A DNA stretch of 64,000 nt. Source: a virus. Taxonomy: Duplodnaviria > Caudoviricetes. Both the position numbers and the translations under genes were made by a program. Under the pieces are notes generated by a model. The model worked only from the letters and a program-made list of their open reading frames with translations, had not been told where the DNA came from and ran no database searches. The stretch lies in IMG/VR virus record IMGVR_UViG_3300025141_000018. The stretch is one strand, 5' to 3'. Positions 518 through 60,970 of this stretch are shown here, one piece after another (positions within the stretch are counted from its first letter, which is position 1; each line of letters starts with the position of its first letter).

Positions 518-1477
518 TCAAGCCGCTATTGTATCAATTATAACTTTTGTAATATCATATGGATTAGCATTAGATGCTGGGCGCCTATCTTCTAAATAAC
601 CGGTTGTATAATTAGATTCAACTGTTTCGGGCGGTATTCGTACACTTGCACCCCTATCACCCTCGCCATAACTAAACCGATCAATTGATGCTGTCTCATG
701 TAAGCCAGTTAATCTTTGATCGTTATCTTTTCCATAAACTTCAATATGAATAGCATGATTTTGGTCTAATTTATTAAGTATACTATCATATACTTCTTTA
801 TTAGCATCATTTCTCATTTTGTCTGTACTAAAGTTTGTGTGCATACCAGATCCATTCCAATCACCTTTAATAGGCTTAGGTTCTATATTAATATCACAGC
901 CATGCTCCTCTGCAACTCTCTCTAAAATGTATCGTGACATCCAAAGATCATCTCCGGCATTTTTTGCACCTTTACTAAACACTTGGTATTCCCATTGTCC
1001 AAGAGCAACTTCTGCATTTGTACCAGTAATATCAATATTTGCATCAATACATTTAGTCATATGATCAGAAACTACATTTCGTCCTGCAACGTTGCTTGCA
1101 CCTATACCACAGTAATATGGTCCTTGGGGTCCAGGCTCTCCATTTGCCCAACCTAATGGTTTACCAGTACCGTTTGTTATAAAGTATTCTTGTTCAAATC
1201 CAAACCAATATCCATCTGAGTCTTCAAATGTTATGGCTTCTCTCTTGTCAGTTGAACACATAACAAGAAAAGCACCAGTAAGAAACGGATTAGGATATAG
1301 TTTAACTGGTGTTAATGTAACATCCGAATGATCGCCGGGTGCTTGATCTGTTGAAGAACCATCATACGACCAAACAGGTACTTCTTCTAATTTGCTAATG
1401 TTGCCTTCCGCAACCTTTACTTTACTACGTAATTTTTCGTTAGCATCGAGCCATACGTATTCTAATACTGTCTTCAT
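518..1477 (-). CDS. glnII: glutamine synthetase type II
   Basis: WSYDGSST, GPQGPYYCG, NAEVALGQWEYQ, DWNGSGMHTNFST, RLTGLHETA, DRGASVRIP, YLEDRRPASN motifs. Confidence 0.93.
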   Translation of the reverse strand: MKTVLEYVWLDANEKLRSKVKVAEGNISKLEEVPVWSYDGSSTDQAPGDHSDVTLTPVKLYPNPFLTGAFLVMCSTDKREAITFEDSDGYWFGFEQEYFITNGTGKPLGWANGEPGPQGPYYCGIGASNVAGRNVVSDHMTKCIDANIDITGTNAEVALGQWEYQVFSKGAKNAGDDLWMSRYILERVAEEHGCDINIEPKPIKGDWNGSGMHTNFSTDKMRNDANKEVYDSILNKLDQNHAIHIEVYGKDNDQRLTGLHETASIDRFSYGEGDRGASVRIPPETVESNYTTGYLEDRRPASNANPYDITKVIIDTIAA

Positions 1478-1697
1478 TTTATCTCCTTCGAGTCTAAAAA
1501 ATAGACAATGTTATTTAAATTTTCCATTATATTCCTTCCGAATATGCTTAATTTTTCACATTGTATATTTACCGTGGTATTATAGAAACATACGTGCTTA
1601 GGCATATTTTGGAAAAAAGTGCTTAAAATTTATAAGAGACGTCTATTTTTGCTACACGACTAAATAGAATAGTTTAGGTTAGGAGTAATAGAACAAA

Positions 1698-2582
1698 ATG
1701 ACACAATTAATTAACCCTGTTGAATTTACGACTGTGGTTAAGCGTCTTCGTTCCTTTTTCGATAACTTAAATTTTCAAGAAGTACACACCCAAAATAGAT
1801 TAAGCATACTTGCCGCTTGTGAGGACCCAACTACTGTTGCAACCTACGAGTATGGAGGCAAGATATGGCCACTTCCACAAACTGGACAAATGTGGCTTGA
1901 ATACGAACTACTAACAAAACCTGATTTGGCAGGTTGTTATTGTGTTAGTACAAGTTACAGGCAAGAGCAAAATCCACAGGAAGGCCGGCACGAAGTTATT
2001 TTTCCAATGTTTGAATTTGAATCACCAGGTGGTTTTGATGATTTATTAAAAATGGAAAGTGATTTATTAACACACCTCGGATTTAATTGTGATCACGGAA
2101 GAGCAGTTTACAATGATGGACTCATTGACTTCCCAGGTGGGTATTACCAAAGTATGGTAGCACATTATGCGGCGGCCAATAACGAGCTGACCAGTTACCA
2201 CGAAAGCAACATGTATGATGAATACGGAGATGTATTCTTCTTAACATTATTTCCTGAATCAACCAGTCCTTTCTGGAATATGAAAATTTCAGATCAAAGA
2301 GGACCAAAAGATATGAAACTTGCAAATAAATGTGACGTCATCATAGGAGGCATGGAAACTATTGGTAGTGCTGAGAGATCTTGTAATGTACAAGAAATGA
2401 AAGAGCAATTCTATACAATATCCGATGGCGGATATGCTGGTTTGCTATTTGATTTATTTGGTAAAGAGCGGGTAGAGTACGAACTTTTTGAATTTTTAAG
2501 TTATGATTTTAAACCACGTTATGGTGGTGGTATAGGAATAACACGCTTAATTGCAGGAATGAAAAAAGCGGGCCTGTTATAA
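1698..2582 (+). CDS. class IIb aaRS catalytic-domain-only protein (AsnRS/AspRS-like; archaeal-type asparagine synthetase-like)
   Basis: motif 1 RLRSFFDNLNFQEVHT, motif 2 SYRQEQNPQEGRHEVIFPMFEFE, motif 3 GGGIGITRL; no N-terminal OB anticodon-binding domain; TAAATA at 1661-1666 and SD AGGAG upstream. Confidence 0.85.
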   Translation: MTQLINPVEFTTVVKRLRSFFDNLNFQEVHTQNRLSILAACEDPTTVATYEYGGKIWPLPQTGQMWLEYELLTKPDLAGCYCVSTSYRQEQNPQEGRHEVIFPMFEFESPGGFDDLLKMESDLLTHLGFNCDHGRAVYNDGLIDFPGGYYQSMVAHYAAANNELTSYHESNMYDEYGDVFFLTLFPESTSPFWNMKISDQRGPKDMKLANKCDVIIGGMETIGSAERSCNVQEMKEQFYTISDGGYAGLLFDLFGKERVEYELFEFLSYDFKPRYGGGIGITRLIAGMKKAGLL

Positions 2583-2737
2583 TGACAGAGAATGCTGAAA
2601 ATGCATTTATAGACCTTTTCTTCTTTGAGAAATACGGATTTGCTAGTTGCTTTGAGTGCGACAAAACATTTACAGACCTTGTTGAACTAAGCAAGCATCA
2701 AGAGGAACATCTTAAAGAAGAACAGACTCTGGGGTGA
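2582..2737 (+). CDS. 51-aa C2H2 zinc-finger mini-protein (below ORF-track cutoff)
   Basis: MTENAENAFIDLFFFEKYGFASCFECDKTFTDLVELSKHQEEHLKEEQTLG; exact C-x2-C-x3-F-x5-L-x2-H-x3-H; start overlaps upstream stop (TAATG). Confidence 0.7.
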   Translation: MTENAENAFIDLFFFEKYGFASCFECDKTFTDLVELSKHQEEHLKEEQTLG

Positions 2738-2819
2738 CGAAACGGTAGACGTGGTACGTTGTTTGCGTATTGTCCCTTTGCAGAGGGGCGTGTTGGTTCG
2801 AATCCAACCCCCAGAGCCA
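2728..2819 (+). tRNA. atypical tRNA, anticodon GUU (Asn), long variable arm, encoded CCA
   Basis: acceptor TCTGGGG/CCCCAGA, G73, CCA; D stem ACG/CGT; anticodon stem GTACG/CGTAT with loop TTGTTTG; variable stem GTCCCTT/GAGGGGC; T arm GTTGG-TTCGAAT-CCAAC. Confidence 0.88.
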
Positions 2820-3108: not shown

Positions 3109-3290
3109 GGTAACATATCTCCTTTTTGTAACTGTTTTATCTTTCGATAAGCATGATCCAATTTAGATAATGTGTTAGTGTTTGATACCTCGACATACAC
3201 TCTACGTAATTCTCGAAGTATACGTTCTCGTTCTTTAATGTGTCCTCGGGGGTATTGTTTGTTAGTACTCATTATATTACTATTTAACAT
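3042..3290 (-). CDS. hypothetical protein
   Basis: basic ORF in the minus-strand gene run; 3' end overlaps the next gene. Confidence 0.45.
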   Translation of the reverse strand: MLNSNIMSTNKQYPRGHIKERERILRELRRVYVEVSNTNTLSKLDHAYRKIKQLQKGDMLPWIDIPVVPNSTLPTKKKLKKT

Positions 3291-4324
3291 GTTTCATAAT
3301 GCACGGCTTCAAGTATATCTGCACAACCTACAGTTTTATCACACGAAGTATAACATTCTCTTAATGGCTTATTTTCTAACATATCAAAAAAATCCTTTTG
3401 GTATTTGTCAGTATCTAATATTGTTTTAATATCATGTTTACTAGCATTATTCCAATCGTTACCTAACCAATTATAGATTTCTTTACCGGCACCACCTTCA
3501 TGTGATTCTGCTCGACTAGCATTCCACATACAACATGGTAATATATCTCCGTTTACTGTAAGATAAATTGCTGATCCTGCTAAACTTAAACATTTTATAT
3601 TATGATCGGGCGTTGGCTTTGGTAATGTAACAAAGTTATCTGATAACGGAGTTGCCAATGTAATAGGCCTTTTAAGGAAATTAATTGCTCTATCAGATTC
3701 GTTATAATCTAATACTGATCTAAATCTTTTACAACCCAGTTTTTTACTATACTCTTTAACTAATGGTACATTGTGTTTATTGTGTTTAAATATAACCATT
3801 TTCCATTCAGCAACTCCTCCATTGCTTATAAACGTATGCATATTACGTTCTATTAATTCCCAATTTTCACGAGCCGTTGATTGTCCTATTCTATATTTGC
3901 TATTAGCCTCACCTAAATCATCTATAGAAAATGTTATATATCTATTTTCTTTATTACAAAATTTTGCTAACTCCTTCCATACAGTTTCATTTCCTAATGT
4001 TCCGTTTGTATGAAAAAAGAATCTTATACGTTTGTTTCTTGAGGATACCATTGCTTCACAAATATCAAGAATACCTTTATGTCCAAGTGGATCGCCATAT
4101 GTACCTATAAATTCAATTTGTTTCCATAATAATGAGTTGGGACCTTCAAATAAGTTATGCTTGAATATATTAGGATCTAAATATTGATTATATATTACAT
4201 TATTGTTTTTATGTAACGTATTATTTTCATATCTGTATCGTTTACAGCCAGGGCAAAACAGATTACAAAATGTAGTTAATTCAACTTCTAATGTTATTTT
4301 ACCAAATTTATCTGTATTAAACAT
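3284..4324 (-). CDS. radical SAM protein with C-terminal SPASM/twitch-like domain
   Basis: CNLFCPGC (CxxxCxxC), GTYGDP, FSIDD, GDILPCCM, terminal CxxxC; start moved to MFNTDK. Confidence 0.88.
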   Translation of the reverse strand: MFNTDKFGKITLEVELTTFCNLFCPGCKRYRYENNTLHKNNNVIYNQYLDPNIFKHNLFEGPNSLLWKQIEFIGTYGDPLGHKGILDICEAMVSSRNKRIRFFFHTNGTLGNETVWKELAKFCNKENRYITFSIDDLGEANSKYRIGQSTARENWELIERNMHTFISNGGVAEWKMVIFKHNKHNVPLVKEYSKKLGCKRFRSVLDYNESDRAINFLKRPITLATPLSDNFVTLPKPTPDHNIKCLSLAGSAIYLTVNGDILPCCMWNASRAESHEGGAGKEIYNWLGNDWNNASKHDIKTILDTDKYQKDFFDMLENKPLRECYTSCDKTVGCADILEAVHYETC

Positions 4325-5342
4325 TTTTACCACACTTATGAAAACATGTCCGTATATATTCTTCTTTACGTAAAACTGCTGGTATGTGTTCTGCAAAATA
4401 CGGATGTTCAAATACTTTTGCTACGCCATGTTTTTTTATATTATTCCAGTCATTTGAATAATTATTAAAAAACTCTTTCATGTCGTCTTCTTTGTTTAAT
4501 CTATAATGATAACAACATGGCCACATTTCAAAATTATATGTAATAGCAATAGTTTTTCTTTCGTTAACATGCATACAATCAAATCCTTTTGGATTCTCTA
4601 ATCTTTCTTTTATTTGTTTTTCAATATGTTTAGTTTGCTTAGTAGTTTGTTTAGGTGCTATTACTTGTTTTAATTTGTTATGTGTTTCATTATATGTGTC
4701 TTGCGAAATATGTTGCTTTACTTCTTCTGTTACTTTTAACACATCATTTATTTTTCTAGTATTATGCATATAAAAATGAAAACCATATTCTTGTGCTTTC
4801 TTTTTTGTATACATAACATCGTCTATATTATGTCCAAATTGAATAAACTGCCAGCCACCTTTTCCTTCGTACTGTTTAAAAATATTTAAATTGCGTTCAA
4901 TTATTTCGTAGTCACTACCTATTCTATATTTTTCATTAACGGCTTGATGGCTACCATCTATTGCTACTACAAAACGTATTTTAGTTCCGCCTAGTTTATT
5001 TGTTAGCATAGCAATATTCCGCCAAGTCTCTTCCGTGCCTAATGTAGCATTAGTTGAAATATAAACAGTTTTTGCATTGTGGCTTAACAGAGCATCCACA
5101 ATACTAATGAAATCAGGATTGCCCATAGGGTCAGAGACACCACCAGACAAGGACCAATATACTTCATTTACTATTCCCTCATTTGCTAACCAGTTAATAT
5201 CATCAACCGTCCAATGCTTGATGGGTATTTTTTCTTTGCTTTTAACTACTCTATGATATCGTTCGCACAATACACAAGTTAAATTACAAAAACTAGTTAT
5301 TTCACAATCTACTTCGTGAACTTTCCGCATCGTTGTATACAA
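4317..5342 (-). CDS. radical SAM protein with C-terminal SPASM/twitch-like domain
   Basis: CNLTCVLC, GGVSDP, VAIDG, EMWPCCY, CFHKC. Confidence 0.88.
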   Translation of the reverse strand: MYTTMRKVHEVDCEITSFCNLTCVLCERYHRVVKSKEKIPIKHWTVDDINWLANEGIVNEVYWSLSGGVSDPMGNPDFISIVDALLSHNAKTVYISTNATLGTEETWRNIAMLTNKLGGTKIRFVVAIDGSHQAVNEKYRIGSDYEIIERNLNIFKQYEGKGGWQFIQFGHNIDDVMYTKKKAQEYGFHFYMHNTRKINDVLKVTEEVKQHISQDTYNETHNKLKQVIAPKQTTKQTKHIEKQIKERLENPKGFDCMHVNERKTIAITYNFEMWPCCYHYRLNKEDDMKEFFNNYSNDWNNIKKHGVAKVFEHPYFAEHIPAVLRKEEYIRTCFHKCGKNV

Positions 5343-6277
5343 GTTTCAATTGGGTTTGTTTCGATTCTTTTATCTAATTTTTCCCAAAATTTTTCATTTG
5401 CAATCGAATGAAAACTTTTATATTTTATATTTTTTATTTGCATTACTTCTTTTACTTCTTGTCTAGTTTGTAACCTATTATCATGGGGGCTTGCACCTAA
5501 ATGACAACAAGGAAACACATCACCAGATGCTCCTACATATATTGTTTTCCAATCTTTGCATTGCGGAGCATCAACAAATCCTTTATAATCATTCTTTTTA
5601 ACAATGTTATTCATATCCATATTTTCGGATACTTTTATATTAGGAATATCAAATCCTTCATTAAGATTATTAGACACAAAAAAATCTTTAAAACCTAATT
5701 TTGTTGCAAGAGTTCCTGCTTCTTCAACTTGATGTTTATTGTGTTCAAACATAATATACTTCCAATGAGCATTTCCGCCATTGCTTATAAATGTATGTAC
5801 ATTTTCCATTATTTTTTCCCATCGTACATTGCGTCTATATAAATGATTTGTATCTTCTAATCCATCTATTGAAAAGTTTACAATTAGTTTTCCTGCAAAT
5901 ATATTACCACCTATTATTGTTTTAGTTTTAATATTTGCAAGTGCTATCCATGCATCTTCTTTACCTAGTCCTCCATTTGTATCTATAGTTATGAACGAAA
6001 ATCGTTTAAATTCAATTATCTTGTGAATTATTTTTATAATATCTTTATTGAATAACGGATCTCCCATATTTCCACATAAATTAATTTGAACTTTATCTAT
6101 TATATTTGTACTAGAAAATATGTTTTCAATATCTTCTACAGTTAAATTATTATTATATGTTACTAAAGGATTAAGATAAGAAACGTTTTCATCAAGTGTA
6201 TGCCTCATGCATAACGGGCATCTTGCATTACAACCTGAGCTTAACTCTAAATGTAACTTCCTTATTTCAGAATACAT
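5309..6277 (-). CDS. radical SAM protein with C-terminal SPASM/twitch-like domain
   Basis: CNARCPLC, CGNMGDP, FSIDG, GDVFPCCH, CIQRC. Confidence 0.9.
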   Translation of the reverse strand: MYSEIRKLHLELSSGCNARCPLCMRHTLDENVSYLNPLVTYNNNLTVEDIENIFSSTNIIDKVQINLCGNMGDPLFNKDIIKIIHKIIEFKRFSFITIDTNGGLGKEDAWIALANIKTKTIIGGNIFAGKLIVNFSIDGLEDTNHLYRRNVRWEKIMENVHTFISNGGNAHWKYIMFEHNKHQVEEAGTLATKLGFKDFFVSNNLNEGFDIPNIKVSENMDMNNIVKKNDYKGFVDAPQCKDWKTIYVGASGDVFPCCHLGASPHDNRLQTRQEVKEVMQIKNIKYKSFHSIANEKFWEKLDKRIETNPIETCIQRCGKFTK

Positions 6278-37247: not shown

Positions 37248-37475
37248 TTACTTCTTGCTATAAATACCCCATAAAATCCAAAGGGCAATTAAGCCAACAA
37301 GTCCTTCACCACCTAATGCTTTCACGAATGCGATTACATTTCCCAGGATGTCGAAAGGAAGGAATACTACGTTCGCTCCAAAAATGATTTGAAGAACTAT
37401 ACCCATCATCAGAATCGATAATCCAACTTCTGTTAAACCTCGTATCCAAGCAGATACACTTTTGATAATATCCAT
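37248..37475 (-). CDS. 75-aa two-TM membrane protein
   Basis: SD AGGAG; hydrophobic; start at MDIIK. Confidence 0.7.
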   Translation of the reverse strand: MDIIKSVSAWIRGLTEVGLSILMMGIVLQIIFGANVVFLPFDILGNVIAFVKALGGEGLVGLIALWILWGIYSKK

Positions 37476-37497
37476 CTTATTTTTTCTCCTAAAATGA

Positions 37498-37817
37498 AAG
37501 GTTGATTCTGTTTCCAGGTTCAACCTTTAAAACCCACTAAATTATGCGGCTAACGCCATTGCATAATTAGGACTATACTCTGCATTGTTTGCAGTTATTG
37601 TTAATACAGTCTCTCCGATGCATCATTACGCTGTCGAAATCTATTTCGCCCCCATCAGCGAAATACAACATCTAAAATCCATATTAACCCTCCGGAGCCC
37701 AATAAAATTACAAAGGCCCAAAATAGGTTTTGATTGCTCATTGTTGTACCTCTCTGGTGGAGGCGGGCGGTATCGCACCGCCGTCCAAACGTCGTCAACA
37801 AAGTGTCATCGACCGTG
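37498..37817 (-). ncRNA. ssrA: circularly permuted (two-piece) tmRNA gene
   Basis: acceptor piece ends GGCGG-TGCGATA-CCGCC-CGCCTCC-A-CCA (37782-37755); coding piece starts GGGGGCG at 37653 with G3.U70; tag ANNAEYSPNYAMALAA* at 37592-37542; TAAATA at 37827-37822; 3' hairpin at 37497-37528; outer ends approximate. Confidence 0.92.
37655..37741 (-). CDS. 28-aa hydrophobic peptide in the tmRNA intervening segment
   Basis: SD GAGAGG (37754-37749), 7-nt spacer, ATG; MSNQNLFWAFVILLGSGGLIWILDVVFR*. Confidence 0.6.
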   Translation of the reverse strand: MSNQNLFWAFVILLGSGGLIWILDVVFR

Positions 37818-37835
37818 TGTATATTTACCTGAATT

Positions 37836-38264
37836 TCAGGTAGATTCCCCGGAATTACACCGAGGTGCGTGGATCTCAACTAGGTAAGATTCACGTTTTT
37901 CTAGCACTTTTTTACTAGTAAAATTAGCACACGGGGTAAATATAACCTCCACGTCATCTAATGTATCCTTGGTAAAAAATATGTGCCTAAACTCATCCCA
38001 ACTTTTAGTTTGTCTTGTTCCGTGTTTAGTAATGCCTAACAACTTTCTTGCATGTTGTCGTAATCTTTGTGGTGTTCCAGCATTATAACTGGTATTATCA
38101 CTTGCATTAATTCCGATATAAAAAATGCCAAAACTTGGCGAACTTAGCATATAAATGCCTTGAGAACGAATCTCTTTTGGTGAATCTTTCCGTGTTCTGA
38201 CACTAAAACTGTTATCTTTTGGTATAAAATCTAGAATTTTTTTTAAAGGAAATTTATACTGCAT
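37836..38264 (-). CDS. GIY-YIG homing endonuclease-like protein
   Basis: GIYMLSSPSFGIFYIG, RLRQH, E...N; apparently leaderless from a TTGACT-N18-TATAAT promoter at 38301-38272. Confidence 0.8.
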   Translation of the reverse strand: MQYKFPLKKILDFIPKDNSFSVRTRKDSPKEIRSQGIYMLSSPSFGIFYIGINASDNTSYNAGTPQRLRQHARKLLGITKHGTRQTKSWDEFRHIFFTKDTLDDVEVIFTPCANFTSKKVLEKRESYLVEIHAPRCNSGEST

Positions 38265-60476: not shown

Positions 60477-60571
60477 AATAAATATATATTACACTATTTA
60501 GGTTGTTTTCGCAACCTTTATTATGGGGCACCATCCCCGTAGTGGATAGAACCCACTTTAGGAGAAAACAA

Positions 60572-60970
60572 ATGGGAAGACCAATTAGTAAAAGACATAT
60601 CGGTACACCCGATGCTGGCAACGAATTAAAATGTCGGTATCATACCGGAGCCGCAGAAGTAAACGGCTGGATTGTTGCACAAAAAGGTACCAAGCGATAT
60701 AAATGCTACGATGGTTCCACTTATGCAACATGCTCATTAGTTGATAAAGCACAAGGTACATTAGCCGCTGGCGAAATGACTGTTACTGTTAAAGACGATG
60801 GCGGAACAGTTCGCCAGGTCACAAAAATTACAGGACATAGAGTTATGCTTGATTCAGGCACATCTCAGCCTTGGACATTTACAACAGATGCCGCTGATGA
60901 CAAAGTGGAAATTGAAGAAGCAGGTACGGACGATTCCTTTACCGGCGCAGACGATTTCGAAGCAGACTGA
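60572..60970 (+). CDS. hypothetical protein
   Basis: SD AGGAG before MGRPISK; TAAATA at 60479-60484. Confidence 0.75.
   Translation: MGRPISKRHIGTPDAGNELKCRYHTGAAEVNGWIVAQKGTKRYKCYDGSTYATCSLVDKAQGTLAAGEMTVTVKDDGGTVRQVTKITGHRVMLDSGTSQPWTFTTDAADDKVEIEEAGTDDSFTGADDFEAD

Follow-up and report, generated by a model that had tools for sequence, protein, structure and literature searches.

A viral tRNA gene that carries the asparagine anticodon (GUU) on a body with the long variable arm of leucine and serine tRNAs raises the question of which enzyme charges it, and to what end. The gene lies on the plus strand, at positions 2728 to 2819, of a 64,000-nucleotide stretch of DNA from a virus of the Caudoviricetes (IMG/VR record IMGVR_UViG_3300025141_000018), which we analysed as a whole and call the window. 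An initial annotation of the same DNA had considered the tRNA alone. Its description of the tRNA anatomy was correct, but it overlooked the decisive context: upstream lies a gene for an enzyme with the catalytic core of an asparaginyl-tRNA synthetase (AsnRS). In phages the tRNA is obligately coupled to this gene. It is the 3' half of a two-gene asparagine cassette of which the AsnRS-type core is the 5' half. The tRNA is also real and under selection, with a variable arm that is plastic and dispensable and a nucleotide 37 that is unconstrained.

A class II tRNA with the anticodon of asparagine

The tRNA and its parts are placed as follows (bp, base pairs; nt, nucleotides):

2728 to 2819, plus strand: tRNA(GUU) of 92 nt, called with exact ends as tRNA-Asn(gtt) by ARAGORN, scoring 41.2 bits with Rfam RF00005 and 89.2 bits with the covariance model of its own family, and supported by covariation.
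2737 to 2752, plus strand: Leu-type D arm with a 3-bp stem (ACG/CGU) and the loop AAACGGUAGA; the next-best matches of the family model are phage tRNA-Leu(UAA).
2761 to 2763, plus strand: anticodon GUU, in a loop with U32, U33, U37 (at 2764) and G38 (at 2765).
2772 to 2789, plus strand: variable arm with a 7-bp stem, two of its pairs being G-U, and a 4-nt loop, as placed by the minimum free energy fold.

The match to RF00005 was obtained in a search of the region (E 1e-7, gathering score 29). It has the four-helix cloverleaf and the T-loop, treats the long arm as an insertion and lies above the gathering threshold, which makes the sequence a member of the tRNA family. The gathering run on the whole window did not call the tRNA that the regional run found, and this is a filter effect. 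In the window copy, the acceptor stem (UCUGGGG/CCCCAGA) begins with U1-A72, the anticodon arm is GUACG-UUGUUUG-CGUAU and the T arm GUUGG-UUCGAAU-CCAAC, followed by G73 at 2816 and an encoded CCA at 2817-2819. The minimum free energy fold is a cloverleaf with the variable stem (-35.8 kcal/mol, z -2.5). Every feature that the initial annotation had read from the letters (D stem, variable stem, anticodon loop, G73, CCA) is present, and its central observation, a class II body of the Leu/Ser type with an Asn anticodon and a pyrimidine at position 37, is confirmed in this copy.

We built a covariance model of the family from 36 distinct copies of the tRNA. ARAGORN misses or misreads members with arms longer than about 25 nt (as 'att', 'aat' or '???'); the model corrected these calls and recovered members of up to 111 nt that ARAGORN had missed. 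Conserved homologues, for which the initial annotation had suggested a search, do exist: 52 distinct relatives keep the identity set and the pairing. Across the 36 distinct homologues, the four standard helices are paired in 99.6% of the cells, with compensatory changes at 16 of the 20 pairs. None of 500 shuffles did as well, and slid controls were 40-54% paired. Among the distinct members, U1, A72 and G73 are each found in 52/52, the anticodon G34-U35-U36 is likewise kept in 52/52, and CCA is encoded in 50/52.

The anticodon loop is much less regular than the anticodon. Nucleotide 37 is U in 34 of the 52 members, G in 8, A in 7 and C in 3, i.e., a purine in only 15, and nucleotide 33 is U in 47, C in 4 and G in 1. 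As controls we took 37 other distinct tRNAs from the same phage loci, including readers of ANN codons (Ile, Arg, Thr and Ser). All 37 have U33 and a purine at position 37 (Fisher p = 3.8e-13 for the purine contrast between the two sets). Because every control obeys both rules, the odd loop is specific to this tRNA and does not reflect a general laxity of phage tRNAs.

The variable region ranges from 6 to 39 nt. In 43 of the 52 members (13-39 nt) it folds into a stem, of 3 to about 15 bp, with sequences that differ among lineages yet pair by compensating changes; in the remaining nine it is a loop of only 6-8 nt. These short-arm members are scattered over the tree of the partner enzyme; hence, the arm was lost several times.

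Judged by these sequences, the tRNA is a hybrid that joins the acceptor end and anticodon of a tRNA-Asn to a Leu-type class II body. With the canonical bacterial tRNA-Asn(GUU), a class I tRNA, it shares GUU, G73, U1-A72 and the CCA end. Canonical tRNA-Asn(GUU), such as that of E. coli asnT, has a variable loop of 4-5 nt and A or N6-threonylcarbamoyladenosine (t6A) at position 37. The family departs from it in the D arm, which has a large loop and a 3-bp Leu-type stem in place of the 4-bp stem of the class I body, in the variable arm of 13-39 nt of most members, in nucleotide 33, which is not always U, and in nucleotide 37, which is mostly U (U37 in the window), A37, the site of t6A37, being found in 7 of 52. 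After its own members, the family model scores highest with tRNA-Leu(UAA) from the same phages, at 61-65 bits; no other tRNA exceeds 49. Those we compared (L001, L002, L008, L027) share with the family the D arm GUGGYGRAAnnGGUAGAC and the class II variable arm, but they have A73, a G1-C72-type acceptor, a Leu anticodon and A37. The family is therefore Leu-like in its D arm and is no tRNA-Leu at position 73, where G is invariant.

Long arms and G73 are also combined with an anticodon for another amino acid in allo-tRNAs and other non-canonical class II tRNAs. The family appears to differ from these in its normal 7/5 acceptor/T geometry, with no conserved eighth pair, and in its invariant Asn acceptor set, its dispensable arm and its linked AsnRS-type gene. 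Neither the acceptor stem of 8 or 9 bp nor the shortened T stem of tRNA-Sec and allo-tRNAs was found. A pairing of C2727 with G73, which had been noted earlier, is possible in the window copy; it does not extend to the family, since base -1 is C in only 22 of the 52 relatives (T in 16, A in 13, G in 1). A Sec-like 8-bp acceptor stem is thus ruled out. Cyanophage-type copies (L081, L082, L099, L117 and others), those of P-SSM2 and P-SSM7 included, read ...CACAGTT and have no encoded CCA, which the clade of the window does encode.

Coupling of the tRNA to an AsnRS-type core gene

The tRNA closes one of the few plus-strand units of the window, in which it is preceded by two genes:

1698 to 2582, plus strand: AsnRS-type class IIb catalytic core of 294 amino acids (aa), without an anticodon-binding domain (PF00152, the class II D/K/N synthetase domain, E 2.5e-16).
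2582 to 2737, plus strand: open reading frame (ORF) of 51 aa with a C2H2 zinc finger (PF00096, E 4.7e-5).

The start of the zinc-finger ORF overlaps the stop of the enzyme gene (TAATG), and its own stop, TGA, is nucleotides 8-10 of the tRNA. The ORF is kept in close relatives, often fused to an IPxYKNGxGIH...ELQRQAREL module, and is missing from most of the family, in which the gap is 5-10 nt.

Relatives of the enzyme are found more than 596 times in viral contigs and in more than 8000 protein clusters. With ARAGORN, about 50 of 80 loci showed a tRNA(gtt) close behind the enzyme gene; the family covariance model found the tRNA immediately 3' of the gene in 69 of 83 sources. The loci without it are nine in one giant-virus clade, three with too little downstream DNA, one duplicate, and L044. 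We inferred the phylogeny of the enzyme by maximum likelihood. The nine enzymes without the tRNA form a single clade (support 99/98), and the tree places outside it only two others without the tRNA, L032, from a truncated locus, and L044, which has a long branch. The clade consists of contigs of giant viruses, i.e., nucleocytoplasmic large DNA viruses (NCLDV) (L066, L038, L039, L041, L049 and others). L066 was typed as a giant virus from its local genes: only a few kb separate the enzyme gene from major capsid genes of NCLDV type and from a gene for an mRNA capping enzyme.

We also made the reverse test, in which a tRNA-specific DNA pattern that is blind to the enzyme was scanned over the viral contigs. 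This resulted in 116 matches. The enzyme lies directly upstream of 103 of the 103 family tRNAs that could be tested; the remaining matches are five unrelated RNAs and eight with too little upstream DNA.

The gap between the two genes is 5-10 nt in most lineages and 61-226 nt in the clade of the window. Most of the longer gaps are filled by small ORFs translationally coupled to the enzyme (L003, L004, L009, L027, L024, L016, L012 and the window). These consist of two modules, single or fused: the motif IPxYKNGxGIHxLIxELQRQAREL and a classical C2H2 zinc finger. When the finger is last, the ORF ends in ...TLG*, with its stop inside the tRNA. The genes that flank the cassette vary between phages.

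Among cultured viruses, the cassette is carried by the Prochlorococcus phages P-SSM2, P-SSM7 and P-SSM5; in these the enzyme is annotated as a 'tRNA ligase'. It appears under this name in a published gene table (PMC3037559), the one mention that a literature search turned up, and GenBank already annotates both the tRNA and the 'tRNA ligase' for P-SSM2 and P-SSM7. The single tRNA that Rfam finds in the complete 252-kb genome of P-SSM2 is the family tRNA. P-SSM7 has four tRNAs in one cluster, and none of them is a canonical tRNA-Asn. The P-SSM2 record AY939844.2 (L082) has its tRNA-Asn feature, PSSM2_199, at 164094-164179, a position within a different coding sequence; the actual tRNA is at 162083-168, right after PSSM2_198. 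The coordinates of the feature were apparently taken over from GU071092, the other record of P-SSM2.

Of the proteins compared, true AsnRS is nearest to the enzyme: a profile built from 32 diverse members scored 58 bits against AsnRS in the PDB, 55 against archaeal aspartyl-tRNA synthetase (AspRS), 34 against archaeal AS-AR and 27 against LysRS. The AlphaFold (AF2) model of the enzyme has a mean confidence (pLDDT) of 93.8 and, with Foldseek, superposes on AsnRS/AspRS catalytic cores with a TM score of about 0.7. In alignments, the 294 aa of the enzyme cover no more of AsnRS than its catalytic part (residues ~140-430 of the PDB chains). All class II motifs, the motif-2 loop and the pocket motifs Q-x-x-Q-x-x-L-E and G-S-A-E-R are retained. 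The pocket motif QTGQMWLE aligns with QSSQLYLE of AsnRS and not with QSPQLYKQ of AspRS, and ETIGSAER aligns with EIVGGSMR. Residues R88/E90/R97/H98, Q61-E68, G223-R227 and R274...R283 are at least 85% conserved. The enzyme thus has the class II motifs and the Asn-type pocket of AsnRS, and shares with class IIb AsnRS (PDB 2XTI/2XGT, 1X54, 8H53) the fold, motifs 1-3, QxxQxxLE and GSxER. Unlike AsnRS, it has no N-terminal OB anticodon-binding domain, and its NCBIfam scores (18-29 bits) are far under the family cut-offs (353-414). The core-only architecture, without an anticodon-binding domain and with about 294 aa, is that of archaeal AS-AR ('AsnRS2'; PDB 3P8T/1NNH) and bacterial AsnA, from which the enzyme differs in being closer to true AsnRS (3P8T itself gave only 34 bits). 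Pfam and NCBIfam scans of the enzyme gave no AsnA match and no TIGR00669, and a look-up in the ESM Atlas added no function. To our knowledge, AS-AR and AsnA have no dedicated tRNA gene.

Charging of the tRNA and the role of the cassette

The charging enzyme, the amino acid and the decoding role of the tRNA(GUU) are all things that we infer from the patterns described above. We tentatively prefer, short of an even chance, the reading that the core enzyme charges the tRNA with asparagine through its acceptor end. The enzyme would activate asparagine and transfer it to the tRNA, of which it would read the acceptor end only (U1-A72, G73 and CCA). The cassette would thus produce Asn-tRNA(GUU) independently of the host AsnRS and of the indirect route, in which a non-discriminating AspRS (ND-AspRS) acts together with the amidotransferase GatCAB, and the tRNA would then read AAC and AAU. 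The long arm would be a remnant of Leu-type ancestry and not an identity element, and t6A37 would be dispensable, because nucleotide 37 is free to vary. Such a private pair is supported by the linkage in both directions, usually at 5-10 nt and between flanking genes that vary, by the retention of this tRNA as the only one of P-SSM2, by the complete class II motifs and AsnRS-type pocket of the enzyme, and by the invariants of the tRNA, which are placed within reach of a lone catalytic core. The GatCAB of bacteria recognises U1-A72 together with the D-loop and discriminates against supernumerary bases in that loop (PMC2811023). Hence, the class II body may keep the tRNA out of the indirect pathway of the host.

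A possible clue to the host comes from G296, a Methylophilaceae metagenome-assembled genome (MAG) with a chromosome of ~1 Mb, in which gatB is present while both asnS and asnB are missing. Binned with it is a contig of 89 kb (L199) whose cassette is 76% identical, although this may also be an artefact of binning. The gatB gene of G296 is in three frame-shifted pieces, which suggests assembly indels. If G296 is a host, free asparagine could enter translation there only through a new AsnRS, which would speak for charging by the core.

Taken as a whole, and with slightly more reserve than the charging step, the cassette might be a self-contained pair present in hundreds of ocean phages: a core-only AsnRS and a private class II tRNA-Asn, free of t6A37 and insulated from ND-AspRS/GatCAB by its Leu-type body. 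If the core does charge the tRNA, it would be the first natural AsnRS to work without an anticodon-binding domain, and the cassette would be a ready-made candidate for an orthogonal enzyme-tRNA pair. The phages would then bypass the host route to Asn-tRNA, which would be of consequence where streamlined marine hosts rely on GatCAB alone.

Several observations count against private charging, and many of them come from homologues outside phages. The enzyme family is found, at 52-61% identity, in many bacterial MAGs (Patescibacteria, Aureispira, Chitinophagales, Moheibacter). The family tRNA is missing from these bacterial MAGs, only five phage-like MAG contigs carrying it. In Patescibacteria, the enzyme occurs in 4 of 251 sampled genomes. 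In the set of 40 cellular carriers that we tallied, 29 also have a full-length AsnRS-like gene (12 of them above the curated cut-off). The genes around the enzyme are metabolic: in Bacteroidota it lies directly behind pyrD or pckA (the latter encoding phosphoenolpyruvate carboxykinase, PEPCK), fusions to PyrD and PyrF exist, and the window has a glutamine synthetase-like gene next to the cassette, a context seen in the window only. We then compared 61 enzymes with the tRNA to 84 without. Some 115 positions reach 85% identity or more in the one group as in the other; they take in the entire active site as well as the motif-2 loop, and no active-site position is specific to either group. The homologues without the tRNA (giant viruses, Patescibacteria, Bacteroidota) thus share the active-site and motif-2 residues of those with it.

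The remaining objections concern the tRNA and the precedents for the enzyme. An enzyme blind to the anticodon leaves the invariant GUU unexplained, which only decoding or a host enzyme would explain. A mostly pyrimidine nucleotide 37 and an occasional nucleotide 33 other than U are features of a poor decoder. Furthermore, the two known class IIb cores without an anticodon-binding domain, AsnA and archaeal AS-AR, are asparagine synthetases and not tRNA ligases.

These points lead to the alternative that survives best, namely that the cassette supplies asparagine. The core would be an ammonia-dependent asparagine synthetase, like AsnA and AS-AR, and the tRNA would be charged by the host; we regard this as somewhat less probable than charging by the core. 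The same holds for the host route that it entails, charging either by AsnRS, which would read GUU and G73, or by ND-AspRS and GatCAB, through U1-A72. The two genes would then travel together because both raise the supply of Asn-tRNA. Since the active site is identical in the groups with and without the tRNA, the chemistry of the enzyme should be the same in both. This, together with the precedents of AsnA and AS-AR, the latter likewise a bare core of 294 aa, favours an asparagine synthetase. The metabolic neighbours (PyrD, PEPCK) and fusions (PyrD, PyrF), the glutamine synthetase-like gene of the window and the AsnRS-like gene of most cellular carriers point the same way, and asparagine accounts for 6.1% of phage codons. 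The invariant combination of GUU, G73 and U1-A72 is moreover the set read by host enzymes (PMC2811023). AsnB is present in 16 of the 40 cellular carriers, AsnA in 1 and neither in 24, the last count being in keeping with a synthetase. Five Patescibacteria genomes have gatB and no asnS above the cut-off. Overall, the tallies of the 40 carriers point both ways and do not separate the two main models.

Other observations are left unexplained by asparagine supply: the absolute two-way linkage at a spacing of 5-10 nt, the retention of only this tRNA by P-SSM2, and the class II body with its unconstrained nucleotide 37. The enzyme family is also nearer to AsnRS than to AS-AR (58 vs 34 bits) and is missed by the AsnA models of Pfam and by TIGR00669, and free asparagine would be useless for translation in a host without AsnRS, if the binning of G296 reflects the host. 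Should the enzyme nevertheless be an asparagine synthetase, the cassette would be a new kind of auxiliary metabolic module, an amino-acid synthase hard-wired to its tRNA.

It is unlikely that the tRNA is not mainly a decoder and serves instead as a nuclease-resistant substitute or decoy, as a non-ribosomal aminoacyl donor, or as a cofactor or sensor of the enzyme. An invariant GUU next to a purine 37 in only 15 of 52 members, with U33 missing in 5, would fit such roles, all the more as the 37 other phage tRNAs of the same loci obey both loop rules (p = 3.8e-13). Phage tRNAs that evade tRNA-targeting defences are documented (PMC11555353). However, the cassette has no third conserved partner gene, its flanks varying among phages, and the conserved cloverleaf, T-loop and CCA fit normal aminoacylation and a substrate of EF-Tu. 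We know of no host nuclease that targets tRNA-Asn in these hosts, which counts against a decoy. Whether the tRNA is charged by the core or by the host, a large family that keeps its anticodon but can do without a purine at position 37 challenges the rule that readers of ANN codons need t6A37.

The initial annotation had proposed that seryl-tRNA synthetase (SerRS) might charge the tRNA through its long arm, putting serine at AAC/AAU codons. The long arm and G73 of the window copy are what the idea has in its favour; in the light of the family it is very improbable. The arm cannot be the indispensable determinant of SerRS, with stems that vary from 3 to about 15 bp, were repeatedly lost and are missing in 9 of 52 members. 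Bacterial tRNA-Ser begins with G1-C72 and G2-C71, so its acceptor determinants differ from those of the family, in which U1-A72 is invariant and 2-71 is C-G or G-C (C-G in the window). The D arm is of the Leu type, the body resembles phage tRNA-Leu(UAA) and not tRNA-Ser, and the conserved partner enzyme is of the AsnRS and not of the SerRS type. Serylation and the misreading of AAC/AAU thus find no support, the Asn-set invariants being kept in 52/52.

A decaying relic (the remnant of an integration site or a pseudogene), which the odd anticodon loop and the very different lengths of the variable region might suggest, is of negligible probability: the helices are paired in 99.6% of the cells with compensatory changes at 16 of 20 pairs, the identity nucleotides stay the same even between loci whose enzymes are only ~50% identical, and the arm, which the initial annotation had expected to be decayed and non-covarying in a pseudogene, covaries wherever it is present, so that the covariation data exclude a pseudogene.

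A literature search found no study of the cassette, of the hybrid tRNA architecture, of a long-arm tRNA-Asn or of its anticodon loop, and a search on the AsnRS status of Prochlorococcus returned nothing relevant. Marine viromes hold the family in abundance, with more than 8000 protein clusters, and its presence in cultured cyanophages makes private charging by the core and its alternatives directly testable.

Gene neighbourhood and occurrence of the window

Two further features lie upstream of the cassette:

518 to 1477, minus strand: GlnII-type glutamine synthetase-like gene of 319 aa, divergent from the cassette (PF00120; NF041605 at 325 bits, below its cut-off of 500).
1555 to 1583, plus strand: match to a sigma-70-like promoter, with 10 of 12 consensus positions and a TG; it is a consensus match only, no commoner than in shuffled sequence.

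The window has ~34% G+C, and its minus strand holds nearly all genes. The window carries SufB/SufS, many radical SAM genes, a class II ribonucleotide reductase and a helicase with PHROG matches, along with a permuted transfer-messenger RNA (tmRNA), a gene content typical of large marine phages. Its DNA is found again in marine metagenomes from at least 16 studies; a megablast search of phage genomes with its first 12 kb gave no match. Among metatranscriptome contigs, two runs cover 120-190 nt of the enzyme gene of a relative (1857-2068) and no part of the tRNA, from which neither expression nor its absence follows.

Three diverged radical SAM/SPASM paralogues lie in a row at 3284-6277 (minus strand), convergent with the tRNA, and no precursor peptide was seen with them. 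The permuted, two-piece tmRNA is at 37451-37849 (minus strand) and encodes the tag ANNAEYSPNYAMALAA. Finally, a freshwater-2 RNA motif was identified at 60500-60574 (plus strand) with a score of 58 bits.

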